Shown one piece after another: positions 5,460 through 52,032 of a DNA stretch of 64,000 bases (position 1 is its first letter; each line of letters starts with the position of its first letter). Both the position numbers and the translations under genes were made by a program. This DNA comes from an uncultured beta proteobacterium. GTDB lineage: Bacteria > Pseudomonadota > Gammaproteobacteria > Burkholderiales > Gallionellaceae. The notes under the pieces are model-generated. The model saw only the letters and a program-made list of their open reading frames with translations, did no database searches and was not told the DNA's origin. The stretch is taken from contig CAVRDK010000004.1 in the NCBI GenBank assembly GCA_963719855.1, positions 938,776 through 1,002,775 on the forward strand, given 5' to 3'.

Positions 5460-7805
5460 ATGATTGAAGACCCAGAACTGCGTCAGTTATTCAAGGCGGA
5501 AAGCACGGAGCATCTCGCCCGTCTTGACGACGGCTTGCTGCGCCTTGAAAAAAATTGCACTGACCAAGCGCTGCTGGAAGAGGTATTCCGCGAGGCGCAC
5601 AGCATGAAGGGCGCAGCGCGCATGTTGGAGTTGTCAAAGATCGAAACCGCCGCGCACGGTCTGGAAAGCATCCTGAACACGGCGCGCAAGGGTGAAGCAC
5701 CGCTCACGCCGGACGTGATCGAACGTATGACTATCGTGCTGCGCGATTTGCGCAAGCTGGTGCAGGAGGCGCTGATCGGAGAACCCGCCGGGCGCACAAA
5801 TACTCCTTCCCCCTCCCAGGGGGAAAGTTGGGTAACCAATGACTTGGCTGGTGTTGTTGGACAGCCAAGTCAGATGTCTATAACCAGCCGCTTGCCCCAC
5901 ACTTTGGGGCTTAGCGGAATGGCTAGTAGTTTCATTAGTAGTTCCATCAATGGGGGTAAAAGTTTAGATGGAAGTAAAAATTCTGAGAATTTGACCAGTT
6001 CAATCCCCTCCCTAGCCCTGCCGGGGGGAGGGGACAGAGGGATTGCAGCCGAGCCTTTCCGTATCGAAACTGTGCGGGTGGAGACGCGCAAGCTGGACGA
6101 TCTGCTTACCCTGGCGGGCGAACTCAGCGTGATTCAGGGACGGGCACAGCATCGGCTGTCGCTGATGGATGAGATGCTGGAACAATGGGCAATGCTGGAA
6201 CGCAGCCGCAGGAAATTTCGCTTCCTGCTGCGCAGGACGGAAACCACAGAAACCATGGCTAAGATGAGCGAAACTGTGCGCCAGATGCTGCGCGCAGATG
6301 GCGACATTGTGGCGCTGCTCGGAAGCCGGATCAAGCAAGCGCGCGATGCTTTATACGAGGACGGCGCGAGGCTGGAATCCACGGCCAACACGCTGGAGGA
6401 GCGGGTGCATGATGTCCGCCTGATGCCGCTGTCCTCCGTGTTTTCGCTATTTCCGCGCATGGTACATGATCTCGCCAAGGAGCAGGACAAGGAAGTAGAA
6501 CTGGTGATCGAAGGAGGGGAACTCAACGTGGACAAGCGCGTCCTCGAAGAAATGAAAGACCCGCTGATGCACTTGTTGCGCAATGCCATTGACCACGGCA
6601 TCGAACCGCCTGCCGAACGCGAACGGCAGGGCAAGCCTCGCGGCGGCACGCTGCGGCTGCGCGCGGTGCAGGAAAACAATAGTGTGCTGCTGGAAGTGCG
6701 CGACGATGGACGCGGCATGGATGTTGACGCAATCCGGCATGTGGCGTTGCAGCACGGGCTGAATGACGAGGCAACGCTCGCCACCATGACCCCGGCGCAA
6801 TTGCAGCAACTGATTTTTTTGCCCGGCTTCTCCACCAGCACCTTCATTACCGAGCTGTCCGGGCGCGGCGTTGGACTGGATGTGGTGCGGGTCAACGTGG
6901 AGCGTCTCAAGGGTGACATCCGCATGGAGTCCGCGCCGCATCATGGCACCATGATGCAGTTGCGCCTGCCGCTGGGTCTGTCTACCACGCGCTTGTTGCT
7001 GGTCAGTGTGGGCGACCATCGCTACGGTTTACCGATTGAATTTGTCCACACCTCGCGGCGCGTGCGCGAGGAAGATATTTTCACCCTCGAAGGTCGCCCT
7101 GCCTTCGAGTTGGACGGACAGGCGGTGATCGCTCCGCGCCTCGCCGATCTGCTGGGCTTGCCCGCCGAAAATCAGGGCGACGAAACGGTATGCATCGTGA
7201 TTCAGGTTGGCGACGAACGGCTTGGGTTGCGGGTGAATGAATTACTGGACGAAGAAGAGGTGCTGGCCAAACCGCTGGGCGCACCGTTGCAGCGGGTACG
7301 CAATGTTTCCGGCCTGACCATACTGGGTAGCGGGGAGATTTGTGCGGTGCTGAATCCTGCCGATCTGCTGCGCTCGGCGCACAAACTGGCTGCCGCGCCC
7401 GCCAAGGGCAAACTTGAGCGGTCTGGGCCGCCGGTCAAAACTTGCATCCTGCTGGTGGAAGACTCTGTGTTGGTGCGCGTCATGGAAAAACGTATCCTTG
7501 AAGATGCCGGTTATGAGATAGTCACCGCAGTTGATGGTGTGGATGCCCTCAATGCGCTGAGTAGCCGTTCCTTTGCGGCAGTCGTATCAGATATCATGAT
7601 GCCCAACATGGACGGCCTCTCCCTCACCGCCCGCATCCGCCAGGAACCGCACTACCACGATTTGCCGGTAATTCTGGTAACCTCCCTCGCCTCCGACGAG
7701 GACAAGCGGCGCGGCCTGGAAGTCGGCGCCAATGCCTATATACCCAAGCCCTCATTCGATCAGCACGTGCTGCTGGAAACTTTGCAAAGGTTGATCGTGC
7801 CATGA
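5460..7805 (+). CDS. cheA: hybrid chemotaxis histidine kinase CheA with C-terminal receiver domain
   Basis: 781 aa. Domains are Hpt (EAHSMKGAARM), HATPase_c (LLRNAIDHGIE, GRGVGLDVV), a CheW-like domain and REC (VSDIMMPNMDG). The stop overlaps the cheB start (ATGA). A 240-bp repeat-derived insert lies in the P1-P3 linker. Confidence 0.9.
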   Translation: MIEDPELRQLFKAESTEHLARLDDGLLRLEKNCTDQALLEEVFREAHSMKGAARMLELSKIETAAHGLESILNTARKGEAPLTPDVIERMTIVLRDLRKLVQEALIGEPAGRTNTPSPSQGESWVTNDLAGVVGQPSQMSITSRLPHTLGLSGMASSFISSSINGGKSLDGSKNSENLTSSIPSLALPGGGDRGIAAEPFRIETVRVETRKLDDLLTLAGELSVIQGRAQHRLSLMDEMLEQWAMLERSRRKFRFLLRRTETTETMAKMSETVRQMLRADGDIVALLGSRIKQARDALYEDGARLESTANTLEERVHDVRLMPLSSVFSLFPRMVHDLAKEQDKEVELVIEGGELNVDKRVLEEMKDPLMHLLRNAIDHGIEPPAERERQGKPRGGTLRLRAVQENNSVLLEVRDDGRGMDVDAIRHVALQHGLNDEATLATMTPAQLQQLIFLPGFSTSTFITELSGRGVGLDVVRVNVERLKGDIRMESAPHHGTMMQLRLPLGLSTTRLLLVSVGDHRYGLPIEFVHTSRRVREEDIFTLEGRPAFELDGQAVIAPRLADLLGLPAENQGDETVCIVIQVGDERLGLRVNELLDEEEVLAKPLGAPLQRVRNVSGLTILGSGEICAVLNPADLLRSAHKLAAAPAKGKLERSGPPVKTCILLVEDSVLVRVMEKRILEDAGYEIVTAVDGVDALNALSSRSFAAVVSDIMMPNMDGLSLTARIRQEPHYHDLPVILVTSLASDEDKRRGLEVGANAYIPKPSFDQHVLLETLQRLIVP
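5806..6045 (-). repeat. composite repeat inserted in frame in cheA (G/C-rich palindromes flanking two hairpin units and a 12-bp microsatellite)
   Basis: The span is 240 bp, or 80 codons. Hairpin units at 5831-5928 are the reverse complement of the AGCCAT...GGTTAT units seen at 21490, 23628, 37866 and 48047. The flanks are CCTTCCCCCTCCCAGGGGGAAAG and CAATCCCCTCCC...GGGGAGGGGACAGAGGGATTG. Confidence 0.8.
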
Positions 7806-8860
7806 TCCGGGTTCTGTTAGTAGACGATTCTCCACTCGTGCTGAACATCCTTCAACGCCTGCTGTCTCGCTCACCCGAAATCCAGGTGGTAGGCACCGCA
7901 ACCAACGGCAAGGAGGCGCTCGATCTGTTGCCCGCCTTAAATCCGGATGTGATCTGCACCGACCTGCACATGCCGGTGATGGATGGGCTGGAATTTACTC
8001 GCGAAGTAATGGCCAAGTATCCGCGCCCCATTCTGGTGGTGAGCGTCTCAGTGGAAGCGGGGTCAGCCAACGTGTTCATGCTGCTCGACGCAGGAGCGGT
8101 CGATGTTTTTCCCAAGCCACGCGCCATTCAGGACGCAGACTTTGACAAGGTAGCAGATGAACTGGCCAGCAGAATACGCATTCTGGCCGGTGTGCGGGTG
8201 ATTCACCGCAGCAATGTCATGAACGCCCCCCTTGCATTGCCGCCCACCACTTCTTCCCGCCCGCAATCCTCGCTTCGCATCATAGTAATCGGCGCTTCCA
8301 CCGGCGGCCCGCAGGCCCTGCGCGATATCCTGTCGCACTTGCCCGCCACCTTCCCGCTGCCGGTGGTGTGCGTCCAGCATATCGGCAGCAGTTTTTTGTC
8401 CGGGATGGTGGATTGGCTGGCTGATGCCTGCACACTAACGGTGCGCAAGGCAGCGCATGGTGAGACACCGCAAACGGGCGTGGTTTATTTTGCACCCGAA
8501 GATAATCATCTGGAATTTAATAGCGACGGATGTTTCCTGTTTTCCATTGCACCGCCAGTGGATGGACATCGTCCCTCGGTCACCGTCACCATGCAGGCGG
8601 CGGCGCGTTGTTTTGGTGGCGGCACAGTGGGCGTGTTGCTGACAGGAATGGGAAGCGATGGCGCCGATGGCATGGCGAGCATTGCCACAGCCGGTGGCAT
8701 CACACTCGCCCAGGACGAGGCTAGCAGCGTGGTGTACGGCATGCCTAAAGCGGCTGTAGCACTGGGTGCGGCACAGAAGATACTGCCCTTGGAACAGATC
8801 GCGCCAGCACTGGAAGCGTTGGTGAATAATCATTGCATTGTTGGCAGCAATCATGATTAG
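7802..8860 (+). CDS. cheB: protein-glutamate methylesterase CheB (REC + methylesterase)
   Basis: 352 aa with REC (CTDLHMPVMDG) and a catalytic domain (IVIGASTGGPQAL, LLTGMGSDG). Confidence 0.9.
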   Translation: MIRVLLVDDSPLVLNILQRLLSRSPEIQVVGTATNGKEALDLLPALNPDVICTDLHMPVMDGLEFTREVMAKYPRPILVVSVSVEAGSANVFMLLDAGAVDVFPKPRAIQDADFDKVADELASRIRILAGVRVIHRSNVMNAPLALPPTTSSRPQSSLRIIVIGASTGGPQALRDILSHLPATFPLPVVCVQHIGSSFLSGMVDWLADACTLTVRKAAHGETPQTGVVYFAPEDNHLEFNSDGCFLFSIAPPVDGHRPSVTVTMQAAARCFGGGTVGVLLTGMGSDGADGMASIATAGGITLAQDEASSVVYGMPKAAVALGAAQKILPLEQIAPALEALVNNHCIVGSNHD

Positions 8861-8871
8861 GAGTCCACAAC

Positions 8872-11019: not shown

Positions 11020-11031
11020 CCTTCTCCGTCC

Positions 11032-12444
11032 ATGAACAACACGACTCAACTTGACGAATTTAAGCAACTGCTCGCGCAGAGAATTGGCCTGCGCGTTCCA
11101 CCCGATGCACACGAGCGCTTTGTCGGCATGCTGCATGAGCGTGCTGCACGCCTGGGCTACGCCACACTGGAAGAATACCAAATTTTTCTGGTTGGCGATG
11201 AGGCAGCCGGGGAATGGGAGGAGTTCGCCCGTGTTTTGACCAGCGGCGAGACATTTTTCTTCCGCGATCAAGGGCAATTCGACCTGTTACGCTTGCGCCT
11301 GCTCCCCGAACTGATAGCACGGCATCGCAATGACAAAACCCTGCGTCTGTGGAGTGCGGGCTGCGCCAGCGGCGAGGAGGCTTATTCCTTGTCCATGCTG
11401 ATTGACATGCTGCTGCCGGAACACAGTGATTGGAATGTACTTATACTCGGTACTGACATTGATTCCATGTCGATTGCCAAGGCGCGGCATGGGCGTTATG
11501 GGCAGTGGTCGTTCCGCATGATTCCAGCAGCATTGCAACAGCGTTATTTTCATGAGGAGGGTAACGAGTGGGTGCTAGATGAGCGCATACGCCGCATGGT
11601 GAAGTTCCGTGTTATCAATCTGGTCAGTGAGACGTTTCCAAATTCCGGATCGGAACTGCATGATATGGATTTGATCCTGTGCCGCAATGTATTCATCTAC
11701 TTCGACTCCGCCGCCGTAAAAGCCATCGTGACGAAATTTGCTGCCACCCTTTCCGAGGGCGGTTATCTGATGACAGGACATACTGAACTTATCGGCCAGA
11801 GGGTGCTGGGACTGGAACACAGACTTTTTGCCGAGGGCGTAGTGTATCAACGACATAATTGCCTGCCTGCTTGTGTTGCACCACCTCCTGTCCCGTCAAT
11901 TGCTGCCGAGTGGATTGCGCCTTTCTTGCCGGTGCATACCTTTCCTGTCGACGAGGCTCGAAGCGAGGAGATGCAGGTATTGCCGCAAGCAAGGAACCAT
12001 GACAAAGTGCTCGGGACTTCGGCACGGACATATGCCGACAGGGGTGAGTATGAGCTGGCGGAGCAGATGTGTCGTGAATCGATAGCAACAGACCCGTTGG
12101 CGGCAGCCCCTTATTTTTTATTGGCACAATTATCCCAACTCAAGGGGGACTTCGAACAAGCAAAGGGATGCTTGAACAAAGCCATTTACAACGATCAACG
12201 GTTTGTGGCTGCGTACCTTGAATTGGCGGCTCTACATGAACGCTCTGGGGATATGTCGCGAGCGCTGGCCATGCGGCATGCCGCTTTGAGGATCGTTCGC
12301 ACCATGCCGAACGACGAGCAGATCGAGCAATATGAAAGAACAGCGGGGGAACTGGCGCAATGGCTCGCACAGTTTGATTCGTTGGCGAATAACTACGGCA
12401 GTGCTGACGGGAATCATGTCAGGAGCATGCAACATGGACAATAA
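11032..12444 (+). CDS. cheR: chemotaxis methyltransferase CheR fused to C-terminal TPR repeats
   Basis: 470 aa with CheR motifs (FFFRDQGQF, LRLWSAGCASGEEAYS, LCRNVFIYF). The C-terminus has TPR-like repeats (ADRGEYELAEQMCRESI..., QLKGDFEQAKGCLNKAI...). Confidence 0.85.
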   Translation: MNNTTQLDEFKQLLAQRIGLRVPPDAHERFVGMLHERAARLGYATLEEYQIFLVGDEAAGEWEEFARVLTSGETFFFRDQGQFDLLRLRLLPELIARHRNDKTLRLWSAGCASGEEAYSLSMLIDMLLPEHSDWNVLILGTDIDSMSIAKARHGRYGQWSFRMIPAALQQRYFHEEGNEWVLDERIRRMVKFRVINLVSETFPNSGSELHDMDLILCRNVFIYFDSAAVKAIVTKFAATLSEGGYLMTGHTELIGQRVLGLEHRLFAEGVVYQRHNCLPACVAPPPVPSIAAEWIAPFLPVHTFPVDEARSEEMQVLPQARNHDKVLGTSARTYADRGEYELAEQMCRESIATDPLAAAPYFLLAQLSQLKGDFEQAKGCLNKAIYNDQRFVAAYLELAALHERSGDMSRALAMRHAALRIVRTMPNDEQIEQYERTAGELAQWLAQFDSLANNYGSADGNHVRSMQHGQ

Positions 12445-12540
12445 TTCAGTTGGGTAAATACCCGGCCGGGGGACTCCGTTAGGTTTGACCGTTCCTGCGG
12501 TCATAAATAAAGAGCAACGTTAAAATTTGGCGACATTGTT

Positions 12541-12647
12541 CCCTCCCCCTTGTAGGGGGAGGGTTAGGGTGGGGGTAGAATCCAAGCATGAGCGTAGTCA
12601 AAATTTGTACCCCCATCCCAGCCTTCCCCCTATCAGGGGGAAGGAGG
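12541..12647. repeat. G/C-rich palindromic repeat (CCCTCCCCCTTGTAGGGGGAGGGTTAGGGTGGGGGTA ... TACCCCCATCCCAGCCTTCCCCCTATCAGGGGGAAGGAGG)
   Basis: Long inverted repeat between cheR and ald. The two 60-75-aa ORFs across it are repeat artefacts. Confidence 0.65.
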
Positions 12648-16097: not shown

Positions 16098-16238
16098 GGG
16101 AGCCTCTAGAAATTCAATTTTCTAAGTCAGACAAGGCGCGATTAAAAAATTGCGACGACGCATATAATTGATATGTTAGAAGTAATTTTTTATGAGCAAC
16201 GCGGTATGGCGACGAAAATTGGATTTATAGAGGTTCCC
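16098..16238. mobile_element. MITE-like element, copy 1 (141 bp, about 25-bp terminal inverted repeats)
   Basis: The left TIR is GGGAGCCTCTAGAAATTCAATTTTC. The right end GAAAATTGGATTTATAGAGGTTCCC is its reverse complement. The internal sequence is near-identical to 23578-23873. Confidence 0.65.
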
Positions 16239-19972: not shown

Positions 19973-20521
19973 CTATGCCGAGCGTGACGGAGCCGCCAAG
20001 TCGCCTATACGGAATTGAAAATTGCCCACCTTGCGGTCGGCGAAGTAGTGTTGCAGGGTAAAGCACACAGGACGGAAGGCCAGTTCGTCCCACGGAGTGT
20101 CTTGCTCCTCGAATAGCTTAACTTCCAGGCTTTCTGCGCCGGGTGAGAAATCCAGATCGAGCAATCTGGCGCGAAAAAAAAGTTGCACCTGATTGATGTA
20201 GGGCAGGTTGTACATCGAATACAGATCACCGATGGCGATGCGCGCATTGGCTTCTTCCTGTGTCTCGCGTATCGCAGCTTCGGTAGTGGTCTCGCCGTTT
20301 TCCATGAAACCTGCGGGTAGCGTCCACAGCCCATAGCGCGGCTCGATGGCTCGGCGGCACAACAGGATGCGGCCATCTTCCCATTCCGGGATGGCACCGA
20401 TCACCAAGTTGGGATTCTGGTAGTGGATGGTGGAACAAATGGTGCAGACGTGACGCAGGCGATTGTCATCCGGCGGCTGGCGTAGTTCGACCGGCGCGCC
20501 GCATGCACTGCAAAACTTCAT
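19973..20521 (-). CDS. NUDIX hydrolase with N-terminal zinc ribbon
   Basis: Nudix box GFMENGETTTEAAIRETQEEANA and zinc ribbon CSACG...CTIC. ATG at 20521 (MKFCSACG) overlaps the bamD stop by 4 nt. Confidence 0.8.
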   Translation of the reverse strand: MKFCSACGAPVELRQPPDDNRLRHVCTICSTIHYQNPNLVIGAIPEWEDGRILLCRRAIEPRYGLWTLPAGFMENGETTTEAAIRETQEEANARIAIGDLYSMYNLPYINQVQLFFRARLLDLDFSPGAESLEVKLFEEQDTPWDELAFRPVCFTLQHYFADRKVGNFQFRIGDLAAPSRSA

Positions 20522-21396
20522 TTCCAGAATTCCCACCACGAATTCTCGTTTTGGGATGACGGCTTAACGGCAGGTGCTGTTGTATTTTTCCAGAATTCCC
20601 ACCACGAATTCTCGTTTTGGGGTGACGGCTTGACGCCAGGTGCTATTGTACCATCCTTGGCAATGTTTTTGTCTAGCACCCGCTGCGCATCGTCGCGCAA
20701 ATCCTTCATGCCCATGGCGTCATAGGCCTGCACCATGATCTGCAGCGCATCGAGCGTAGACGGAGTTTGCGGGTAATTAGTGAGCACACCTTTGGCACGG
20801 TTGGCTGCTGCCACATACGCGCCACGGCGCAAATAAAAACTGGCGACATGAATTTCGTAGTGCGCCAAGACGTTGACCAAGTATTGCATGCGCAGCCTGG
20901 AGTCTGGCGCATATTTGCTGTCGGGAAAACGCGTCACCAACTCCTTGAATGCATCGAAGGAATCACGCGCCGCCTTCGGGTCTTTCTCGGAGAGGTCCTG
21001 TTTAACTGTAACTATGCGGGCCAGCAGGCCCAGATCTTCGTTGAAATTGATCAACCCTTTCAGATAATAGGCGTAATCCACATGCGGATTGTTGGGGTAT
21101 TGCTTGATGAAACGGTCGGTAGCGGCGAGGGCTGCGTCCGGTTCCTTCTGTTTGAAATTCGCATAAGCGATTTCCAATTCTGCTTGCTGCGCATAGCGGC
21201 CATAGGGGTAGCGCGATTGCAGCGTTTCAAAAGACTTCACGGCTTTTTCATAATTGTTGTCGTTCATTTCCTCCATGGCATCGGCGTAGAGCTTTTCGAC
21301 GGGAGCAGATTTCGATGCCCCTTTATCGTCCGACGATGAAAAAATGCCACAAGCAGTTAACGTGAGCAACAGGATTAAGGCTAAACTATGGCGCAT
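20518..21396 (-). CDS. bamD: outer membrane protein assembly factor BamD
   Basis: 292 aa with lipobox LTACG and TPR-like YfiO/BamD sequence (LYADAMEEMNDNNYEKAVKSFETLQSRYPYGRYAQQAELEIAYANFK). It is divergent from rluD, as in many proteobacteria. Confidence 0.85.
   Translation of the reverse strand: MRHSLALILLLTLTACGIFSSSDDKGASKSAPVEKLYADAMEEMNDNNYEKAVKSFETLQSRYPYGRYAQQAELEIAYANFKQKEPDAALAATDRFIKQYPNNPHVDYAYYLKGLINFNEDLGLLARIVTVKQDLSEKDPKAARDSFDAFKELVTRFPDSKYAPDSRLRMQYLVNVLAHYEIHVASFYLRRGAYVAAANRAKGVLTNYPQTPSTLDALQIMVQAYDAMGMKDLRDDAQRVLDKNIAKDGTIAPGVKPSPQNENSWWEFWKNTTAPAVKPSSQNENSWWEFWK
20521..20650. repeat. 66-bp tandem duplication at the 3' end of bamD
   Basis: CCAGAATTCCCACCACGAATTCTCGTTTTGGG recurs at 20524 and 20590. 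It encodes KPSPQNENSWWEFWK twice. Confidence 0.8.
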
Positions 21397-21429
21397 GACT
21401 GAACCCGAAAATATTTTGCGCGATTATAA

Positions 21430-21775
21430 CAAAGTTAGGCAATCCACTATGCGACATTTAAAAGACAAGCAATCGGCTGATGAACTAACTAGCCATTCCA
21501 CTAGGCTGCCCAAAAACGGCAACCAAGTGGCTGGTTATATTCACCAAGGCGATAGTGATGTTGTTACAGTCGCATGCACCAAAGTTAGGCAATCCGCTGA
21601 TGGAACTACCGGTGAAACTACTGGTGAAACTACTAGCCATCTGACTAAGCTGCAAAAACCGCAGCAAGTCATTGGTTATAGCCATTTGACTTGGCTGTCA
21701 AAAGACGCCAGCCAAGTCGCTGGTTATAGGCAATCAAAAAACGATTGCCAAGTGGCTGGTTATACCCAGCAAGCT
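21430..21775 (+). repeat. array of codon-phased hairpin repeat units plus microsatellite (bamD-rluD intergenic region)
   Basis: Four AGCCAT...GGTTAT units of 48, 45, 48 and 36 bp, a (GGTGAAACTACT)x2 microsatellite, and the duplicated AAAGTTAGGCAATCC at 21431 and 21581. Confidence 0.8.
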
Positions 21776-21829
21776 GAATACGGAATTGACACTGGAGTTG
21801 ATACTACCGCAAATTCCGCCCCCCTAAGT

Positions 21830-22768
21830 TTGCTCACATTCAAGACGCCTGACGAATATGCCGGGATGCGCCTCGACCAAGTATTGGCCAAGCTGCTGCC
21901 GGAATATTCGCGCGGCCGCCTGCAAGACTGGATCGCGCATGAACAGGTCAAGGTTGATGGCGCAGCCGCCACCATCAAACGGAAAGTGTGGGGCGGCGAA
22001 ACCATCGAAGTCATGCCGCAATCGAATCCGTCCGAACAGCCGCATCAGGCCGAGGACATCGCGCTGAATGTCGTGTTCGAGGACGACAGCATCCTCATTA
22101 TCAACAAACCGGCCGGACTGGTGGTTCACCCCGGCAGCGGCAATTGGGAAGGAACACTGCTCAACGCCCTGCTGCACCATGCGCCGCAACTCTCAGAAAT
22201 TCCGCGCGCCGGCATCGTGCATCGGCTGGACAAGGACACCAGCGGCTTGCTGGTGGTGACCAAGACCATCATTGCGCAAACAGCGCTGGTGCGCCAGTTG
22301 CAGGCACGCACCGTGCATCGCGAATATTATGCGCTGGTCTACGGCGAAGTGGAACGCAGTGGCACCGTGGATGCAGCCATGGGTCGCCATCCCACGCAAC
22401 GCACCAAGATGGCCATCGTGGAAGACGGCAAGCCTGCGGTTACGCATTACGGCGTGGCGGAACGTTTCCCCGGCTGCACCCTGCTGCGCTGCAAGCTGGA
22501 AACCGGACGCACCCACCAGATCCGCGTACATCTCGCCTCCATCCGTCATCCACTGGTCGGCGACAGCACCTACATCAAGGGCGCACAAAAATGCGCGCCA
22601 CAATTGCGCGCCCTGCTCGCCGCTTTTCCGCGCCAGGCACTGCACGCGGCGCAACTTGGGCTGGAGCACCCGGAGACGGGCGAGTGGCTGGAATGGCAGG
22701 CTCCGTTGCCGAACGACATGGCGCAATTGCTGGCACAGATCAGAAGCACATCGCATGAGCTTGCTTGA
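21830..22768 (+). CDS. rluD: 23S rRNA pseudouridine synthase RluD
   Basis: It has an S4 domain (MRLDQVLAKLLPEYSRGRLQDWI) and the catalytic motif HRLDKDTSGLLVV. TTG 21830 is only a guess at the start. The frame stays open back to 21344, but through repeat DNA and into bamD. Confidence 0.8.
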   Translation: MLTFKTPDEYAGMRLDQVLAKLLPEYSRGRLQDWIAHEQVKVDGAAATIKRKVWGGETIEVMPQSNPSEQPHQAEDIALNVVFEDDSILIINKPAGLVVHPGSGNWEGTLLNALLHHAPQLSEIPRAGIVHRLDKDTSGLLVVTKTIIAQTALVRQLQARTVHREYYALVYGEVERSGTVDAAMGRHPTQRTKMAIVEDGKPAVTHYGVAERFPGCTLLRCKLETGRTHQIRVHLASIRHPLVGDSTYIKGAQKCAPQLRALLAAFPRQALHAAQLGLEHPETGEWLEWQAPLPNDMAQLLAQIRSTSHELA

Positions 22769-23492
22769 GCATTGCATCATCCCCGATTGGCCAGCACCAA
22801 AGAATGTGCGTGCCTTGCAAACCACTCGCAATAGCGGTTTCAGCGTTGCTCCCTACGCCAGTTTCAACCTTGGCGACCATGTCGGAGATGCGCCGCTGGC
22901 GGTGGAGCGCAACCGCATGTTGCTGCAACCCCTGCTGCCCAGCGAACCCGTGTGGCTCAAACAGGTACATGGCACGGTGGTGGCGGACGCCGGACAAGCC
23001 TCATGTTGGCCGCAGGCCGATGCCTGCATCACTTCACATTCCGGCGCAGTATGCGTGGTGATGACAGCGGATTGTCTGCCTGTGCTGCTGTGCGATGAAC
23101 AGGGCAGCGTGGTCGGCGCGGCACATGCCGGTTGGCGCGGATTGTGCGACGGCGTAATTGAACAAACCGTGTACGCCATGAACGTAGTGCCACCTTTCCT
23201 CATGGCATGGCTGGGGCCAGCCATCGGCCCGCAGGCATTCGAAGTGGGCGAAGAAGTTCGCGCGGCCTTTGTGGCACAGCAGCCGGAAGCCGCTGCTGCT
23301 TTCGTACCGGGAGTTTCCGGCAAATGGTATGCCGACATTTACCAACTCGCGCGCCTGCGCCTGCACTCACTGGGCATCACGCGCATTTACGGCGGTGAAC
23401 TGTGCACCTATACCGACTATCAACGATTCTTCTCCTATCGTCGTGATGGTGTGACAGGAAGAATGGGAACGTTTATCTGGATAACGGAGTAA
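22755..23492 (+). CDS. pgeF: YfiH/PgeF family laccase-domain protein (peptidoglycan editing factor / purine nucleoside phosphorylase)
   Basis: It starts MSLLEHCIIPDWPAP at ATG 22755, and has VMTADCLPVLL and AHAGWRG motifs. The upstream part of ORF 22272-23492 overlaps rluD out of frame. Confidence 0.85.
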   Translation: MSLLEHCIIPDWPAPKNVRALQTTRNSGFSVAPYASFNLGDHVGDAPLAVERNRMLLQPLLPSEPVWLKQVHGTVVADAGQASCWPQADACITSHSGAVCVVMTADCLPVLLCDEQGSVVGAAHAGWRGLCDGVIEQTVYAMNVVPPFLMAWLGPAIGPQAFEVGEEVRAAFVAQQPEAAAAFVPGVSGKWYADIYQLARLRLHSLGITRIYGGELCTYTDYQRFFSYRRDGVTGRMGTFIWITE

Positions 23493-23577
23493 TCTCTGGG
23501 TATCCGTAATATGTGACAAATTGCCGCACCTCTTTGAGTTATCCGTTCTGCGCCAACTGTTATTTGGAGTGTCTTTA

Positions 23578-23873
23578 GGGAGCCTTTATAAATCCAATTT
23601 TCTGATGAAACTACTGATGGAACTACTAGCCATCTCACTAAGCTGCACAAACCGCAGCAAGTGATTGGTTATAGCCATTCCACTAGGTTGTCAAAAGACG
23701 CCAACCAAGTGGCTGGTTATAAGTCAGACAAGGCGCGATTAAAAATTGCGACGACGCATATACCTGATATGTTAGGAGTAATTTTTTATGAGCAACGCAG
23801 TATGGCGACGAAGTGGGGTAAGCAGGCAATCCGCAAAGCGGATGCTCGCAAAATTGGATTTATAGAAGCTCCC
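23578..23873. mobile_element. MITE-like element, copy 2, carrying two nested insertions
   Basis: TIRs are GGGAGCCTTTATAAATCCAATTTTC and GAAAATTGGATTTATAGAAGCTCCC. Compared with copy 1 it has a 117-bp hairpin-unit insert (23604-23720) and a 39-bp hairpin insert (about 23813-23851). Confidence 0.7.
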
Positions 23874-23920
23874 TTTAGATGACGAACATTTTCGGGAGAT
23901 AAGAACTGCTCCTCTGAGAT

Positions 23921-26067: not shown

Positions 26068-26144
<77 letters not shown>

Positions 26145-32803: not shown

Positions 32804-33655
32804 ATGGACCAACCCGAAAGTAACAAGCCAACCCTGCTGGAACGGCTTTCCACGATGCTGTTGCGTGAGCCGGAAGACCGTGAACAACTGATAGTTCTGC
32901 TGCACTCAGCTTTTGAGCGCAACCTGTTGGATGCCGATGCCCTGTCCATGATGGAAGGGGTGATTCAGGTGTCGGAACGGCATGTGCGCGAAATCATGAT
33001 CCCGCGCGCGCAGATGGATGTTATCGACATCAGCCAGCCTCCGGAAAAATTCATCCCTTTCGTCATCGAGACTGCACACTCGCGTTTTCCCGTCATCGAT
33101 GGTGACAAGGACAATATCGTCGGTATCCTGCTCGCCAAGGATCTGTTGCGCTATTACGCGGGTGAGGAATTTGAAGTGCGCGACATGTTGCGTCCCGCCA
33201 TATTTGTACCTGAATCAAAGCGCCTCAACGTGCTGCTGCGCGACTTCCGCAGCAACCACAATCACATCGCGCTGGTGGTGGATGAATACGGCGGTGTGTG
33301 CGGCATGGCCACCATCGAAGACGTGCTGGAACAAATCGTCGGCGACATCGAGGACGAATACGATTTCGATGAGGATGAAGACAATCTCATTCCGGATGGC
33401 GCGGGCCACTGGCGCGTCAAAGCCGCAACCGAAATCGCCGACTTCAACGAGGCGCTGGGTACGGAGTTCAGCGACGAAGAATGCGACACCGTCGGCGGAC
33501 TGGTACTCAAAGCCGCAGGACAACTCCCTAAACGCGGCGACCGCATCCCCCTCGGCGATCTCATTTTTATCGTCCTGCGCGCCGACAGCCGCAGGCTTTA
33601 TTCTGTGCTGGTGGAGCGCAAGCCGGTAAAGGAAAATTCGGGGAACGGTTCGTAG
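32804..33655 (+). CDS. corC: CBS-domain magnesium/cobalt efflux-associated protein CorC (YbeX)
   Basis: A CBS pair plus a CorC_HlyC C-terminal domain. ATG 32804 (MDQPESNKP) is preferred over the TTG at 32786. Confidence 0.9.
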   Translation: MDQPESNKPTLLERLSTMLLREPEDREQLIVLLHSAFERNLLDADALSMMEGVIQVSERHVREIMIPRAQMDVIDISQPPEKFIPFVIETAHSRFPVIDGDKDNIVGILLAKDLLRYYAGEEFEVRDMLRPAIFVPESKRLNVLLRDFRSNHNHIALVVDEYGGVCGMATIEDVLEQIVGDIEDEYDFDEDEDNLIPDGAGHWRVKAATEIADFNEALGTEFSDEECDTVGGLVLKAAGQLPKRGDRIPLGDLIFIVLRADSRRLYSVLVERKPVKENSGNGS

Positions 33656-33740
33656 GGGCGTATTAGGTGAAACAACTAGCCATTCGACTAGGCTGGCAAA
33701 CAACGCCAACCAAGTCGCTGGTTATGCCATACGCCCCTAC
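33652..33740. repeat. REP (GTAGGGGCGTAT ... ATACGCCCCTAC) enclosing one 48-bp hairpin unit
   Basis: Perfect 12-bp inverted arms at 33652-33663 and 33729-33740. The interior contains ACTAGCCATTCGACTAGGCTGG...CCAACCAAGTCGCTGGTTAT. The corC stop TAG lies in the left arm. Confidence 0.75.
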
Positions 33741-35685: not shown

Positions 35686-36090
35686 ATGAAAATGGCTACA
35701 ACCACCAAGAAACCCGCAGCAAAAAAACCCGCAGCAAAAAAAGTAGCAGCCAAGAAACCGGCCGCCAAAAAAGTTGTAGCTAAAAAGCCAGCGGCCAAAA
35801 AGCCAGCAGCTAAGAAAGCAGTCGCCAAGAAACCGGCTGCCAAAAAAGTTGTAGCTAAAAAGCCAGCGGCCAAAAAGCCAGCAGCTAAGAAAGCAGCCGC
35901 CAAGAAACCGGTCGCCAAAAAAGTTGTAGCTAAAAAGCCAGCAGCCAAAAAGCCAGCAGCTAAGAAAGCAGCCGCCAAGAAACCGGCTGCCAAAAAAGCT
36001 GTAGCCAAAAAGCCAGCGGCCAAAAAGCCAGCAGCTAAGAAAGTAGCCGCCAAGAAACCGGCAGCGAAAAAAGGCATTCTCGGCGCCTAA
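35686..36090 (+). CDS. histone H1-like lysine/alanine-rich nucleoid protein (KKPAA repeats)
   Basis: 134 aa, almost entirely (A/V)AKKPAAKK pentads. The pentads are organised in 75-bp higher-order repeats (CAAAAAAGTTGTAGCTAAAAAGCCA at 35766, 35841, 35916). Confidence 0.7.
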
Positions 36091-37795: not shown

Positions 37796-37811
37796 GTAAA
37801 ACGGCTGGTGG

Positions 37812-38000
37812 GTCTACTGGTGAAGCTACTGATAGAACTACTGATAAGACTACTGATGGAACTACTAGCCATTCCGCTAAGCCCAAAAGTGCCGGGCAAG
37901 CGGCTGGTTATAGCCATCTCACTAAGGCAGCAAGCTGCCAAGTGATTGGTTATAGCCATTCCGCTAAGCCCCAAAGTGCGGGGCAAATGGCTGGTATAGG
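37812..38000 (+). repeat. intergenic array: 12-bp microsatellite (ACTACTGATNNN) plus three hairpin units
   Basis: TACTGGTGAAGCTACTGATAGAACTACTGATAAGACTACTGATGGAACTACT is followed by AGCCAT...GGTTAT units of 45 and 42 bp and a degenerate third unit. Confidence 0.8.
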
Positions 38001-44119: not shown

Positions 44120-44241
44120 CCGTGAGCAAAGATGCTGACTTTCCAGAAACGTAGGATGTGGTGAGGAACGAACCGCATCAATCGCGAACGATGCGGTTGT
44201 CACCGCATCCTACTGCGCTGTGGTAGCGCGAAGGCACAACC

Positions 44242-44918: not shown

Positions 44919-44946
44919 CAAACTTGAGGTAATGGAAAGCTGAAGA

Positions 44947-47625: not shown

Positions 47626-47626
47626 C

Positions 47627-49057
47627 GTGGCAGCTATCAAACAAGTGCTAGTGCCGGACATCGGCAATTTTAAGGACGTGGAGATCATCGAAGTGATGGT
47701 CAAGGCGGGCGACACGGTGCAGGCGGAAGATTCCCTCATCACGATCGAGACCGACAAGGCCACCATGGACGTACCCGCGCCTTTCTCCGGCGCGGTGAAA
47801 GAACTCAAGGTCAAGGTGGGCGACAAGGTTTCGGAAGGGGTGCTGATTGCGCTGATTGAGACTAGCGGTGATGTGTCGGCAATCTCCAGCGCTCCCGCCA
47901 CTGCCGCGCCTATCGTAGCAATAGCGACTGCGCCAAAACTGGAAGCAGTTCCTGTTACCCAAATCTCCAACCCCTCCCAGCCTCCCCTTGTCAGGGGAGG
48001 AGAAAACGCGGCTCCCTCCCTTGATGGAACTACTGATAAAACTACTAGCCATTCCGCTAAGCCCCAAAGCACGGAGCAAGCGGCTGGTTATAGCCATTCG
48101 ACTAGGCCGTCAAAAAACGACGACCAAGTCGCTGGTTATGATAAGGGGAGGGTTGGGGAGGGGTTAGCTCACGCCAGTCCCTCCATCCGCCGCTTCGCAC
48201 GCGAACTGGGCGTCAATCTACCGCAGCTAACAGGCAGCGGCATCAAGGGTCGCGTTACCAAAGAAGATGTGCAAAATTTCGTCAAGACCGCTTTGGCACA
48301 GCCGCGCGGCACAGGCGGCTTGCAAGTCGCGGAAATGCCGGCAGTGGACTTCGCTCAGTTCGGCGCAATCGAGAGCAAGCCGCTGTCGCGCATCCAGAAA
48401 CTTTCCGGTGCATGGCTGCACCGCAACTGGGTTTCCATTCCGCACATCACCCAGCACGACGAGGCTGACATTACGGACATGGAAGCTTTCCGCAAACAAC
48501 TCGGCACGGAATATGCCGCGCAGGGCATCAAGATTACCCCGCTGGCTTTTCTGCTCAAGGCGGTGATGGAGGTCTTGCAGCAATTCCCGGATTTCAACGC
48601 TTCGCTGGATGCCAACGGCGAAAATCTGATCCTGAAAAAATATTTCCACATTGGTGTAGCGGTAGATACCCCGGACGGGCTGGTGGTGCCGGTGTTGCGC
48701 GACGTGAATCAGAAGGGCATCGTGCAACTAGCCAAGGAACTGGCCGAAATAAGCGGACGGGCACGCGAGAAAAAAATCTCCGCCGCCGAAATGCAGGGCG
48801 GCTGCTTTACCATTTCCAGCCTGGGCGGCATTGGCGGCACCGCTTTCACGCCGATTATCAATGCGCCGGAGGTAGCGATTCTGGGTGTGTCCAGATCGAG
48901 CATGAAACCGGTGTGGAAGGACGGAAAATTCGAACCACGTTTGATGCTGCCGTTTTCGCTTTCATACGACCACCGCGTGATAGACGGCGCGGTGGGCGCG
49001 CGCTTTACCACTTATCTGGCGCAGGTGCTGGCAGACGTGCGCAGGCTGGCGCTGTAA
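47627..49057 (+). CDS. aceF: dihydrolipoamide acetyltransferase E2 (single lipoyl domain)
   Basis: It has a lipoyl site IETDKATMDVP, an E3-binding domain ASPSIRRFARELGV and the catalytic DHRVIDG. The linker carries a repeat-derived insert of about 200 bp. Confidence 0.95.
   Translation: MAAIKQVLVPDIGNFKDVEIIEVMVKAGDTVQAEDSLITIETDKATMDVPAPFSGAVKELKVKVGDKVSEGVLIALIETSGDVSAISSAPATAAPIVAIATAPKLEAVPVTQISNPSQPPLVRGGENAAPSLDGTTDKTTSHSAKPQSTEQAAGYSHSTRPSKNDDQVAGYDKGRVGEGLAHASPSIRRFARELGVNLPQLTGSGIKGRVTKEDVQNFVKTALAQPRGTGGLQVAEMPAVDFAQFGAIESKPLSRIQKLSGAWLHRNWVSIPHITQHDEADITDMEAFRKQLGTEYAAQGIKITPLAFLLKAVMEVLQQFPDFNASLDANGENLILKKYFHIGVAVDTPDGLVVPVLRDVNQKGIVQLAKELAEISGRAREKKISAAEMQGGCFTISSLGGIGGTAFTPIINAPEVAILGVSRSSMKPVWKDGKFEPRLMLPFSLSYDHRVIDGAVGARFTTYLAQVLADVRRLAL
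47968..48170 (+). repeat. composite repeat inserted in frame in the aceF inter-domain linker
   Basis: The outer arms are CCAACCCCTCCCAGCCTCCCC and GGGGAGGGTTGGGGAGGGGTTAG. The interior holds GATGGAACTACTGATAAAACTACT plus two AGCCAT...GGTTAT hairpin units (45 and 48 bp). Confidence 0.8.
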
Positions 49058-49081
49058 CCAGCCAATAACGTCAACACGCAA

Positions 49082-51805
49082 ATGGCGTCTACTGTTTTTT
49101 TTGATAACGTCGCGCGCCACATTCTGGCGCAGCACGCGCACGCAATCCCTGACTTACGCCGCGCGGTCGTGTTGCTGCCCAACTACCATGTGGCGCAGCC
49201 GCTGGCGCAAGCTCTTGCCCGAGTGGCACAACGGCCCGCTTTATTGCTGCCCCAAATGGTTACGCTCAACGAATGGGCGCAATCAGTCTCCCTCTCAGAT
49301 CCTGTAGTTCCCGACACTTGCCGCGCCGCCACCTTATATCAGGCGCTGCGCGCACGCCGTTGGTTTGCCGACGCCGATCTGTGGGGTATCGCCAGCGAGT
49401 TGCTTAGTCTGCTGGATGAGCTTACGCAGCATCACGTCACACTGCCGCAAAACGAAGAAGATTTCCTCACGCAACTGGAACGCGCGTATCAGTCCAAGCG
49501 CAACGCCGCGATGCAGTTCGAAGCACGCGTGGTGCATGAGTTGTGGTATGCGATGAGCGTCAGCGGTGAACTGAATGCCGCGCGCGCTTACCAGCAACGC
49601 TTGGCGCAGCTTGCGCAGCAGGCGGATGTGCCGTTGGTCGTGTTGCTGGCTTCCAATCTTGCTGCGCCGGAAGCGCGCTTTCTGGAGGTGTATGCGGAAC
49701 ATGCGCCGGTTAAGGTTTTTGATTTGAAAGAGATGGCGGCGCATGAGGCAAGTTGTGCGGTGCTGCACACGGCGTTGCAAGCCCCATCTTCCCATTTGCG
49801 CGATCAAGCCGCTCACCTGCACGAACATTTTCCCCATGCCGCATTAAACCGTCCTTCGACAGGCTCAGGCGGGTGCCCGACCAAAAGCTCTATGGGGCGA
49901 ACGGGACGGAGGTTAAGTTTGTTTGGCGCGCATAGTCTGGAACAGGAAGCGCGCGCCGCCGAGGTGCAGGTGCGGCGCTGGTTGCTGGCGGGAAAACATA
50001 ATATCGCCATCGTCGCACAAGACCGTCTGGTGGCGCGGCGCGTGCGCGCTTTGCTGGAGCGCGCCGGGGTGCTGGTGACTGATGAGTCCGGCTGGACGCT
50101 ATCCACGCTGGCGGTGAGCACGGTGCTGATGCGCTGGCTGGATGCGCTGCAAAGCGATTTTTATTATCAGGATTTGCTCGACCTGCTCAAGTCGCCGTTC
50201 ATCTTCGCCGACCAGCTAGCGCAAGAACGCAAGCAGGCGGTGTATCAGCTCGAACAACTGGTGCGCAAACACGGCGTGGCTTCGCATCTCGATGCCTTTC
50301 TCGATCTGGCGCACGGCGAGGACGAAGTACAGGTGACGCTGGTACGGCTGCGGCAGGCGGCGGAGGTGTTGCGTAAAAATAGCGATACCTTGAGCGGCTG
50401 GCTGCGTGCGCTGGATGATAGCCTTGCCATTCTCGGCGTCACACAAGGGCTGGCGGCTGATGTGGCGGGCGCGCAGTTGTTGCAGACATTGCAAACCTGG
50501 CAGCAGGAGCTGGCGGCGGACAACACGCGTTTCAGTCGCGCCGAATGGCGGCACTGGCTGGCGCAACAACTCGACGCGCACACCTTCCGCGATTCCGCGA
50601 TAGACAGCCCGGTGCTGCTCACACATCTCGCCGCCACGCGCTGGCGCAGTTTCGATGCGGTGCTGCTGCTCGGTAGCGATGCCACACATCTGCCCAGCGG
50701 AGACAACGGCAGCGTGTGGTTCAACGACGCGGTGCGCAGCACGCTCGGCCTGCCGACGCGCGAGGTGCATCTGGCGCAGCAGCGCGATGATCTGCTGGCG
50801 CTGCTGGCTATGAACGACACTGTGCTGGTCACCTGGCAAGCCAGCAAAAGCGGAGAGCAGAATCTGCTGAGTCCTTACCTAGAAATGCTGCGCGCACTGC
50901 ATGAGTTGGCTTATGGCGATGATCTGGCGGAACATGAGTTGGGCGCACTGCTGGAAGATGCGCAGGTGCGCGGAACTGATTTTCCCTTGCCGGAAGCGGC
51001 TGCCATGCCCGCGCCTGCCGTGCCGCAAAACCTTATACCAAGCCGCATTTCAGCCAGCGGCTATAACAGTCTCGTCGCTTGCCCGTACCAGTATTATGCG
51101 CGCCACATGCTGCGCCTGAATGAAATGGACGAGGTGCGCGAGGGCGTGGAGAAGCGCGATTATGGCGAGTGGGTGCATGACATTTTGCATCGCTTCCATC
51201 AGCAGTTTCCGGTGCTCGGTGAACATGCTCAAGCAGAATTGGAACAGGCGTTGCAGCGCATCAGCAGCGAGGTGTTCGCGCCCACCGTGGAGCGCGACTA
51301 TCTGGCGCGCGCCTGGCTGCTGCGCTGGCAACAGGCGATCCCCGCCTATCTGGATGCGCAGATGAAAAGCGAAGCAGAAGGCTGGCATTACCAAAACGGC
51401 GAAGTGCCGTTTGAATTGCCGTTGACCGGCGAACTGACCCTGCACGGGCGCATAGATCGCGTGGATGTGCAGAGCGAAGGCTCTGCGAAGGTGTTGGACT
51501 ACAAGATGATGGATGCGACCCGGCTGCGCAACAAGCTCAAGGAAGCGGGCGAGGACGTGCAGTTGGCCTGCTACGCCCATGTGTACGAGGCCGACGAGGC
51601 GGCTTTCATCAGCATCGAAAAAGGCAAGGTGATTGCCGTTGCGCCGCCGCAGGATTTGCCGGAACTGGCACAGGCCAACATAGCGCGCCTGACAGAATTG
51701 TTTGCGCAAATGCGAAACGGCGCGGCGATGCCCGCGCACGGTGTGGACGAGGCATGCACGTATTGCGAGATGCGCGGCTTGTGCCGCAAGAGTGAGTGGA
51801 AATGA
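49082..51805 (+). CDS. addB: AddB-type PD-(D/E)XK nuclease subunit (no Walker A; C-terminal Fe-S cysteines)
   Basis: 907 aa with nuclease motif RIDRVDV...KVLDYK. One Cys (LVACPYQYY) plus CTYCEMRGLC suggest an iron-staple cluster. It is paired with the downstream UvrD-like gene. Confidence 0.75.
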   Translation: MASTVFFDNVARHILAQHAHAIPDLRRAVVLLPNYHVAQPLAQALARVAQRPALLLPQMVTLNEWAQSVSLSDPVVPDTCRAATLYQALRARRWFADADLWGIASELLSLLDELTQHHVTLPQNEEDFLTQLERAYQSKRNAAMQFEARVVHELWYAMSVSGELNAARAYQQRLAQLAQQADVPLVVLLASNLAAPEARFLEVYAEHAPVKVFDLKEMAAHEASCAVLHTALQAPSSHLRDQAAHLHEHFPHAALNRPSTGSGGCPTKSSMGRTGRRLSLFGAHSLEQEARAAEVQVRRWLLAGKHNIAIVAQDRLVARRVRALLERAGVLVTDESGWTLSTLAVSTVLMRWLDALQSDFYYQDLLDLLKSPFIFADQLAQERKQAVYQLEQLVRKHGVASHLDAFLDLAHGEDEVQVTLVRLRQAAEVLRKNSDTLSGWLRALDDSLAILGVTQGLAADVAGAQLLQTLQTWQQELAADNTRFSRAEWRHWLAQQLDAHTFRDSAIDSPVLLTHLAATRWRSFDAVLLLGSDATHLPSGDNGSVWFNDAVRSTLGLPTREVHLAQQRDDLLALLAMNDTVLVTWQASKSGEQNLLSPYLEMLRALHELAYGDDLAEHELGALLEDAQVRGTDFPLPEAAAMPAPAVPQNLIPSRISASGYNSLVACPYQYYARHMLRLNEMDEVREGVEKRDYGEWVHDILHRFHQQFPVLGEHAQAELEQALQRISSEVFAPTVERDYLARAWLLRWQQAIPAYLDAQMKSEAEGWHYQNGEVPFELPLTGELTLHGRIDRVDVQSEGSAKVLDYKMMDATRLRNKLKEAGEDVQLACYAHVYEADEAAFISIEKGKVIAVAPPQDLPELAQANIARLTELFAQMRNGAAMPAHGVDEACTYCEMRGLCRKSEWK
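49845..49918. repeat. REP-like palindrome inserted in frame in addB
   Basis: AACCGTCCTTCGACAGGCTCAGG...GCGAACGGGACGGAGGTT shares the TTCGACA(A/G)GCTCAG core with the element in the MmeI-like gene. Confidence 0.55.
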
Positions 51806-51821
51806 TGACTAATTTAAAACA

Positions 51822-52032
51822 CTTCACCACAGAGGCACAGAGACACAGAGGAAAACAACAAGATTGTTTTATCGAATATGCATCGCTACGAGGCGAATGG
51901 ACCGTTCTGAAGTACGGCATATTCTTGTGTGTTTATGAGCCGTTCTCTGTGTCTCTGATGAAACTACTAGCCATTCGACTAAGGCTGGCAAAAGCGCCAG
52001 CCAAGTCGCTGGTTATGTGTCTCTGTGGTGGA
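51822..52032. mobile_element. MITE-like element between addB and addA (CACCACAGAG...CACAGAGA-type inverted ends) with a nested hairpin unit
   Basis: The left end is CTTCACCACAGAGGCACAGAGACACAGAGG and the right end CTCTGTGTCTCTG[58-bp insert]TGTGTCTCTGTGGTGGA. The insert spans 51958-52015. Confidence 0.55.

Follow-up and report, generated by a model that had tools for sequence, protein, structure and literature searches.

The Rickettsia palindromic elements (RPEs) are described, in summaries of the work of Ogata et al. from 2000 and 2002 (PMC10969869; PMC3733652), as repeats of about 100-150 bp that are restricted to Rickettsia, end in a CGTC tag and lie in frame in housekeeping genes. Intragenic copies have also been described for the repetitive extragenic palindromes (REPs), many of them in replication and repair genes (PMC3733652), and the enzyme TnpAREP binds folded single-stranded REPs strand-specifically and cuts at a CT dinucleotide (PMC8266576). 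Here we characterize a family of hairpin repeats in a 64,000-nt stretch of DNA, hereafter the window, from an uncultured beta proteobacterium of the Gallionellaceae (assembly GCA_963719855.1, contig CAVRDK010000004.1, positions 938,776 to 1,002,775, forward strand). The family is real and apparently undescribed, and with a probability of roughly 60% we read it as very small selfish mobile DNA that is non-autonomous and, as a folded single strand, serves as substrate to an enzyme acting in trans. The resemblance to RPEs is close: both are palindromic selfish repeats that occur between genes and often in frame in unrelated housekeeping genes, where a conserved peptide is added and the host protein survives, and for neither is a transposase known. 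Like the RPEs, the present elements are inserted in frame time and again, namely in AceF, CheA, PolA, MutS, CysS, GlnE, an RND pump, and nitrogenase-type and molybdopterin enzymes. The Gallionellaceae element differs in being only 54-60 nt long, in lacking a terminal CGTC, in belonging to the Betaproteobacteria, and in having a repeatable 12-nt leader and nested tandem arrays.

Each element opens with a conserved leader of 13 nt, T-GATGRAACWACT, and continues with a hairpin unit, AGCCAT...GGTTA. Single units and runs of units alike have at least one 12-mer GATGRAACWACT on their 5' side. The 12-mer, which follows a T about 90% of the time, is present in one to six microsatellite-like copies, and the leader is as well conserved as the ends of the unit itself. 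The 48-nt unit folds into three stems, namely an outer one, AGCCA/TGGTT with an invariant G.T pair, a basal one of 5 bp and an apical one of 7 bp; a 2x1 internal loop separates the first two and an A.A mismatch the last two, and an A-rich loop of 7 nt closes the top. The 45-, 42- and 47-nt classes depart from this plan solely in the apical stem-loop, which measures 15, 18, 20 or 21 nt. Pairing of the leader GATG with CAT(T/C) of the unit shows no real covariation (G.T 100, G-C 18, A-T 5). Among the matches listed, which cover the window and 119 loci from other genomes, the main arrangements are [12][48] (60 nt, n=55), [12][42] (54 nt, n=30), [12][47] (59 nt, n=19) and [12][12][45][48] (117 nt, n=4), besides a few longer arrays.

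In the window, the pattern AGCCAT-N20-50-GGTTAT has 14 matches, of which 12 are true related units, as against 0.09 matches expected by chance. A covariance model trained on 74 distinct family members, with the window scored with filters off, detects 13 complete units (seven of 48 nt, five of 45 nt and one of 42 nt), a decayed unit of 44 nt (37954-37997) and a fragment (21728-21750). All 15 fall at exactly the seven loci that the initial annotation, made from the sequence without database searches, had assigned to the family, and none lies elsewhere in the window.

Compensatory change in the stems indicates that the fold itself is maintained. Among 74 distinct 48-mers from many genomes, collected with a search pattern that left complementarity free at the tested columns, 94.8% of stem cells hold standard pairs, compared with 84.5% after column shuffling, and 0 of 500 shuffles reach the observed value; when the structure is slid by 1-3 columns, just 8-41% of cells pair. 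Both partners have changed in 8 of 17 pairs (130 cells), with four pair types at pair 19-29, and the covariation score is 0.274 versus 0.089 for shuffles, again with none of 500 reaching it. The compensatory switching originally proposed is thus borne out, and the basal stems on which it was based (CCACT/AGTGG, CCGCT/AGCGG, TCACT/AGTGA, TGACT/AGTCA and CGACT/AGTCG) as well as all quoted apical stems are legible directly in the sequence. With DNA parameters, a 118-nt dimer folds far more stably than its shuffled versions on both strands (top, z = -3.9; bottom, z = -5.1). Where the apical columns vary freely, non-Watson-Crick cells on the AGCCAT...GGTTAT strand are A.C in 29 cases and G.T in one; the A.C cells would be G.T wobbles on the complementary strand. 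Of 122 units, 118 are more stable as this bottom strand under DNA parameters, and 85 under RNA parameters; the asymmetry fits strand-specific recognition.

That the element moves is best seen at three DNA-level empty sites, in a cheA ortholog, an aceF ortholog and a paralog within the window, each of which marks a precise 117-nt insertion without target duplication. In cheA, the dimer occupies positions 5833-5949 on the minus strand, in the linker between the Hpt and kinase domains, and is composed, on the element strand, of T, GATGGAACTACT, AATGAAACTACT, a 45-nt unit (5880-5924) and a unit of the 48-nt class (5832-5879), the final base of which is host DNA; reverse frame R1 yields the translation VTNDLAGVVGQPSQMSITSRLPHTLGLSGMASSFISSSIN. 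The 39 residues VTND...SSIN are absent from P0130 and other CheA orthologs, and the DNA of the ortholog L122 runs ...CTGGG/ATGGGGG with nothing between, so that the inserted block is unambiguously 5'-TGATGG...GGTTA-3' on the element strand. A 1-nt duplication of a target T was considered and rejected, being incompatible with the cheA junction CAT/TGATG...GGTTA/CCC. In aceF, the dimer lies at 48022-48139 on the plus strand, in the linker that joins the lipoyl domain to the E3-binding domain, and comprises two leaders, a 45-nt unit (48047-48091) and a 48-nt unit (48092-48139), with DGTTDKTTSHSAKPQSTEQAAGYSHSTRPSKNDDQVAGY as the F1 translation. P0002 and P0003, the nearest two AceF orthologs (88-89% identity), are without exactly the 39 residues DGTT...VAGY, and the DNA of one of them (L123) reads ...TCCTT/TGATAAGGGG at the insert position; the boundaries here are ambiguous within the common TGAT. 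The cheA and aceF copies are therefore, as had been suspected, in frame and lineage-specific, being 117-nt insertions absent from the nearest orthologs in both protein and DNA, and they are not ancestral linker sequence. The third empty site is the uninterrupted segment 16100-16216 (plus strand), whose counterpart at 23560-23812 carries the dimer 23603-23720 (plus strand; T + two leaders + a 45-nt unit, 23628-23672, + a 48-nt unit, 23673-23720) between ...TTTTC(T) and AAGTCAG; the alignment, ttttc(t)/aagtcag, leaves no target duplication beyond 1 nt. New copies of the element thus arise as exact blocks, and the target site is not duplicated.

In other species, independent copies stand elsewhere in the same linkers, in AceF (P0014, DGTTSHSTKLSKDDSQVAGY) and in CheA (P0143, TTSHSTRLPKDGNQVAGY; P0159, TTSHSIRLAKDASQVAGY), and both orientations are present in intergenic as well as genic positions. 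Among the matches listed, T is found at position -1 in 120 of 134 arrays and C at -2 in 91 of 134 (68%), and T follows GGTTA in 31 of 36 units outside ascertainment, which puts the insertion point mostly between a pyrimidine, chiefly C, and T. Flank specificity is confined to this dinucleotide, with mostly C on the left and mostly T on the right. Some insertions are located within the loop or the 5' arm of other palindromic repeats. The elements also insert into each other at a fixed place, between unit positions 11 and 12 (..C/TARG), in L098, L105 and L115 and, from a reading of the flanks, in L065, L083 and at window position 21598. The last of these is the nested complex 21588-21763 on the plus strand, in which the host unit is split at its position 11/12: its 5' part AGGCAATCCGC ends at 21598 and its 3' part, TAGGCAATC...GGTTAT, is 21728-21763, with three 12-mers (21599-21634), a 45-nt unit (21635-21679) and a 48-nt unit (21680-21727) in between. 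This self-insertion accounts for the 36-bp unit of the initial annotation, which is the 3' remainder of an interrupted unit, not a complete one. The junction between leader and unit, CTAC/TAGCC, resembles the ..C/TARG target and may be a second fixed self-target; nested insertion there would yield the order [leader][leader][unit][unit], as in the 117-nt dimer.

In L031 and L109, the orthologous surroundings of the 37806 array differ in synteny and hence offer no clean empty site. At five loci from four assemblies (L001, L005, L009, L058 and L060) the element stands in one conserved context, ...GAAAAACTTT[element]GGCCGGGCACCCG, a pattern that stems either from one ancient insertion inherited by all or from a hot spot; the copy in L009 is in frame near the N-terminus of an open reading frame (ORF).

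When scanned over 185,579 species-representative genomes, the family pattern occurs in at least 119 genome stretches, virtually all from metagenome-assembled or other genomes labeled Gallionella, Sideroxydans, Ferrigenium, Sideroxyarcus or Nitrosomonadales/Burkholderiales, and one and the same 42-mer recurs without change in about 10 genomes. Judged by these sequence matches, the family would seem to be specific to, or at least centered on, the Gallionellaceae. A link to phages was dropped, as just two matches fell in viral contigs. No family in Rfam 15 matches the element; only a tRNA reaches the gathering score in the window, and over 21400-23900 there is nothing at E<=1. A literature search combining Gallionella with palindromic repeats returned no description of such repeats in the group. 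A profile search with the F1 dimer peptide over 1.84 billion representative proteins gave 278 clusters, mostly ORFans of 40-220 residues; as host proteins cluster with their insert-free homologs, this search is uninformative on how frequently the element occurs in genes.

How could so small an element be moved? In the mechanism we favor, an enzyme supplied in trans would recognize the folded single strand, which would explain the constancy of the leader, the loop pattern and the bulged or unpaired bases alongside co-varying stems. Given the paired stems, fixed bulges and precise insertion between C and T, the nearest known enzymes are the single-strand HUH/Y1 transposases, and the most likely candidate would be one of the IS200/IS605-RAYT kind (RAYT, REP-associated tyrosine transposase). 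In-frame copies in linkers, loops and N-termini would be tolerated because the element is short, mostly a multiple of three in length, and in F1 almost always stop-free and hydrophilic. Several observations weigh against this proposal. Pfam analysis of ten small or adjacent ORFs of the window revealed no transposase, nor did a transposase-like family recur among the neighbors in the 119 fetched loci, where the recurrent ones among the matches listed are an RND-pump ORF family, a very long ORF of 1509 residues and similar large ORFs. Orientation is unbiased with respect to local GC skew (61 vs 51 loci, p = 0.4; a rough proxy on 8-kb pieces), which counts against a strict lagging-strand-template mechanism of the IS608 kind, since such a mechanism predicts a bias. 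No GTAG stands 5' of the hairpin; the motif is found only 3' of it, on the complementary strand. In the outer stem, the invariant G.T favors the top strand, whereas the mismatches of the apical stem favor the bottom one; the preference for palindromic targets is modest (mean folding energy -6.8 vs -5.8 kcal/mol); and the copies in the window are mutually only 78-91% identical.

Comparison with REPs and their composite forms, the bacterial interspersed mosaic elements (BIMEs) and the REP doublets known as REPINs, brings out both sides (PMC3333891; PMC8266576; PMC3116915; PMC3733652). Shared features are short imperfect palindromes in high copy number, here seven loci in 64 kb, with subfamilies distinguished by compensatory stem changes, and, with regard to the REP/RAYT system, conserved unpaired bases, apparently strand-specific recognition, a C-T junction and insertion without target duplication; intragenic copies in replication and repair genes are common to both as well. 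Unlike REPs, the Gallionellaceae element has no GTAG (or CGTC) at the 5' foot of its hairpin but rather a mirror image, with CTAC-T 5' of the hairpin on the top strand and, correspondingly, GTAG 3' of the hairpin on the bottom strand, 1 nt away. Its units of 42-48 nt plus a 13-nt leader compare with 20-40 bp for REPs, its arrays are head-to-tail instead of inverted doublets, and its intragenic fraction, about a quarter, is much higher than that of the mostly extragenic REPs. A RAYT gene, which in REP systems is typically flanked by the repeats, was seen neither among the small ORFs of the window nor as a recurrent neighbor in the 8-kb pieces.

With the IS200/IS605 family and its miniature derivatives, the palindrome-associated transposable elements (PATEs), the family described here has in common the absence of terminal inverted repeats and of target duplication, direct-orientation hairpins near the ends, a left end at a fixed distance 5' of the hairpin, and a short preferred site that recurs at the element's own left junction, which would account for the self-nesting. 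It differs from IS200/IS605 in being far smaller, in getting by with a single hairpin and in the balanced orientation relative to GC skew already mentioned (61 vs 51), and no TnpA gene was seen among the small window ORFs or as a recurrent neighbor of the sampled copies. It is not a classical miniature inverted-repeat transposable element (MITE), as its ends TGATG... and ...GGTTA are not inverted repeats and the three empty sites lack duplications. Nor is it an integron attC site: neither TGATGRAAC nor GGTTAT matches the core sites RYYYAAC...GTTRRRY, and the elements lie within genes and other repeats, not at cassette boundaries. Among cyanobacterial small dispersed repeats (SDRs), SDR4-6 of Nostoc and relatives, reportedly described by Elhai et al. 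in 2008, measure 21-27 nt; SDRs are likewise mobile, non-coding and below 100 nt, insert into each other and into other repeats and have short tandem repeats nearby, although residence in frame within genes is not known as a hallmark of theirs. What is distinctive of the present family is the repeatable 12-nt leader, the head-to-tail nested arrays, the fixed positions of self-insertion, the high fraction within genes for a free-living lineage.

To what extent are the elements adapted to life inside genes? Counting as embedded those units whose reading frame continues without a stop for 60 codons or more to either side, we find 33 of 144 units (23%) embedded among the matches listed, compared with 59% for random positions; 77% are outside long ORFs. 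The analogy with RPEs drawn in the initial annotation is therefore apt, the more so as Pfam confirms the host genes: domains flank the insert in DNA polymerase I (PolA), MutS, CysS, GlnE, an AcrB/CusA-type pump, a nitrogenase-type oxidoreductase and a molybdopterin oxidoreductase, and an eighth host, an FtsX-like permease, has its sole Pfam match on one side of the insert. The listed embedded units use frame F1 in 22 cases, F2 in five and the reverse frame R1 in five or six, giving the peptides ..TTSHSTRLxKxxxQVAGY, LAIRLGxQTTPAKSLV and ITSDLAGVVxQPSRMASS, respectively; examples of predicted insert peptides are SHSTRPSKNDDQVAGY in AceF and ITSRLPHTLGLSGMASSFISSSINGGK in CheA. The F1 peptide is hydrophilic and located in linkers. 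F1 is stop-free in 72 of the 74 distinct 48-mers, F2 in 60 and R1 in 52, and the other three frames nearly always contain stops. Of the several frames that the units had been noted to read through, only F1 is thus open nearly always, and three open frames out of six are unremarkable as a set, because about 46% of random 16-codon frames would be open. Permutation of columns and pairs reveals no significant avoidance of stops in F1 or F2; R1 has fewer stops than this null, for which subfamily linkage may account.

The lengths tell a similarly mixed story. Among the matches listed, a length divisible by three is found for 122 of 144 units and for 114 of 136 arrays, a strong excess in the census that had been called for, although these counts are copies of four inherited length classes (42, 45, 47 and 48 nt) and reflect few independent events. 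The claim that all units are multiples of three thus stands for the intact units of the window and fails for the family as a whole, which includes 47-nt units and 59-nt elements, and for the decayed 44-nt unit of the window. In other genomes, 22 of 132 listed units (about 16%) are of the 47-nt class. Of these listed 47-nt units, 11 or 12 have a leader longer by one base, which restores 60 nt, among them all six found in long ORFs, which read SHSTRLQKTAAKSLVI and switch from F1 to F2 within the unit; of eight listed 59-nt elements, none is in an ORF. This pattern fits a frame filter and possibly reflects selection among element lineages for lengths divisible by three. Codon phasing is, on the whole, only partly supported.

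One may go further and propose a coding-adapted lineage of mobile DNA, moved by a hairpin-recognizing enzyme of an undescribed kind. The modules of 12, 42, 45 and 48 nt, the 1-nt loop deletion of the 47-nt unit, offset by a leader longer by 1 nt, the nearly always open F1 and its linker-like peptide would speak for the adaptation, and the lack of a GTAG tag, of terminal inverted repeats, of target-site duplications and of a replication-strand bias, together with self-nesting at fixed positions, for the novelty of the enzyme. We regard this as a tentative and rather unlikely extension.

A different origin of the stems has to be weighed against mobility, for templated correction is an established source of apparent covariation in DNA palindromes. 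Palindrome-templated repair, that is intrastrand template switching, might have made the stems match, with arrays arising by slippage or recombination and the dispersed copies being old relics; the microsatellite-like leader with its one to six copies, the 78-91% identity of the window copies, and the absence of a transposase among the ten window ORFs checked or as a recurrent neighbor among the matches listed would all agree with it. It leaves unexplained, however, the precise insertions of identical length at unrelated sites, two housekeeping genes included, as well as the 42-mer unchanged in about 10 different genomes; moreover, it would erase the unpaired positions, leader and bulges that are in fact kept, and it does not predict the strong excess of A.C over G.T. 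While such correction could contribute to stem complementarity, we consider it improbable as the full explanation.

The conserved, covarying structure could also be that of a functional RNA hairpin, for instance one that stabilizes mRNA, signals processing or attenuation or acts as a small RNA, spread or kept for its role in transcripts. A function as RNA elements is known for REPs (PMC3733652), and the copies that directly follow a stop codon (37806) or lie in 5' leaders (23603 and 51956) would suit such a role. Yet position and orientation relative to genes are not constant: between tandem genes, 21 copies are co-oriented and 15 anti-oriented among the matches listed, copies also occur between convergent and divergent genes, and many lie within coding sequence in either orientation. 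As the strand indicated by the wobble asymmetry is antisense to most host genes, and neither a U-tract for termination nor a match to an Rfam family is present, a primary role in RNA appears quite improbable to us. We hold it highly improbable that the unit is a peptide module selected for linker function, with the non-coding copies as decayed gene fragments, for although F1 is open in 72 of 74 units and preferred in genes (22 of 33 embedded units among the matches listed) and its hydrophilic peptide sits in linkers, 77% of the listed units are outside long ORFs, genes use three different frames in both orientations, stem changes freely alter the peptide, the host proteins are unrelated, the nearest orthologs work without the insert, copies are nested within other non-coding repeats, and the 278 peptide-matching protein clusters are mostly ORFans of 40-220 residues.

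If the reading as selfish mobile DNA is true, an RPE-like phenomenon, best known so far from an obligate intracellular genus, would exist in free-living and environmentally important iron oxidizers, where selfish hairpin DNA would repeatedly lengthen linkers by about 20-40 residues in proteins such as pyruvate dehydrogenase E2, CheA, DNA polymerase I, MutS and CysS. Should the lineage in addition be coding-adapted, this would amount to an active remodeling of housekeeping-protein linkers across the Gallionellaceae. As a small modular family with clear empty sites, fixed self-insertion and asymmetric mismatches, it would be convenient for addressing questions of enzyme and strand in REP-like mobilization. 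The elements also inflate gene calls, by N-terminal extensions as in the rluD ORF and by hundreds of short ORFan 'proteins' in public databases, gene callers evidently converting intergenic arrays into ORFans, and they could serve as lineage or strain markers in Gallionellaceae metagenomes.

The window itself has a proteobacterial aceE-aceF operon and genes for a CheA-type hybrid kinase, BamD and RluD, and the named nearest protein homologs of its genes are from Gallionella or Gallionellaceae. The 117-nt arrangement occurs in it four times, in cheA (in reverse), at 21611-21727, at 23604-23720 and in aceF; the second of these is preceded by a third 12-mer, and the automatic array count accordingly scores it as 129 nt. 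In the bamD-rluD region, a monomer at 21478-21538 (plus strand), composed of T, the leader GATGAACTAACT and a 48-nt unit (21491-21538), precedes the nested complex described above. The array 21430-21775 is in frame with rluD within a 474-codon ORF, but it probably sits in the divergent bamD-rluD spacer, because, according to Pfam, the S4 domain begins only at codon 175 and the start of the ORF overlaps the divergent bamD gene. A further monomer, 33666-33725 (plus strand; leader GGTGAAACAACT and 48-nt unit 33678-33725), is lodged in the REP-like palindrome GTAGGGGCGTAT...ATACGCCCCTAC (33652-33740), which is headed by GTAG, and takes up its loop, in agreement with the nesting reported at first. 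Immediately 3' of the stop codon 37793-37795 lies the intergenic array 37806-37997 (plus strand), with five 12-mers (37807-37866), a 45-nt unit (37867-37911), a 42-nt unit (37912-37953) and then the 44-nt unit (37954-37997), in which GGTTAT has a 1-nt deletion, an ordinary case of intergenic decay. The last monomer, 51956-52016 (plus strand; T + GATGAAACTACT + 48-nt unit 51969-52016), is placed within a CTCTGTGTCTC-type repeat just upstream of a gene starting near 52038, and similar hosts are found at L041, L064, L071 and L101.

Other repeats of the window touch on the same sites. The REP-like palindrome 33652-33740 is the sole full copy, with four half-sites of one mismatch elsewhere, and hints that a RAYT-type system may exist in the genome. 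The segment shared by 16100-16216 and 23560-23812 is 94% identical over 72 nt and has promoter-like TTGCGA...TATAAT boxes and an ORF starting MSNAVWRR..., of which the copy at 16188 would encode only 12 residues; originally taken for a MITE, it is a segment present twice that could rather be a leader or regulatory module. A second family, of C-rich palindromes of the type CCCCTCCC...GGGGAGGG, is found at 5806-5832 and 5995-6045 in cheA, at 47975-48021 and 48140-48170 in aceF, and at 828-868 and 12538-12578. In the cheA and aceF linkers these palindromes are in frame and encode PSPSQGESW, PSLALPGGGDRG, SNPSQPPLVRGGENAAPSL and DKGRVGEGL; there they are common to the closest orthologs, and in other genomes they are the commonest host of the hairpin element among the matches listed. 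The AceF orthologs P0015 (...VRPELVEGLVPQRGMVRQAHHERSNGLSG) and P0030 (LREGGGEASGYPSAYSLRV) contain further, unrelated in-frame inserts, and the E2 linker of AceF seems to collect small repeats quite generally.

Away from these loci, the only Rfam match in the window is a tRNA gene at 26071-26144 (minus strand). The gene at 35686-36090 (plus strand), built from 15-nt and 75-nt tandem repeats, encodes a lysine/alanine-rich protein that looks like a histone H1-like or AlgP-like nucleoid protein. An ORF of 1136 codons at 60551-63961 (minus strand) contains four to five tandem repeats of 426 nt (142 residues) with 86-95% identity. Finally, a tandem duplication of 66 nt in perfect phase, 93-94% identical, is found at 20521-20650, at the 3' end of bamD, where it overlaps the start of the adjacent Nudix gene.

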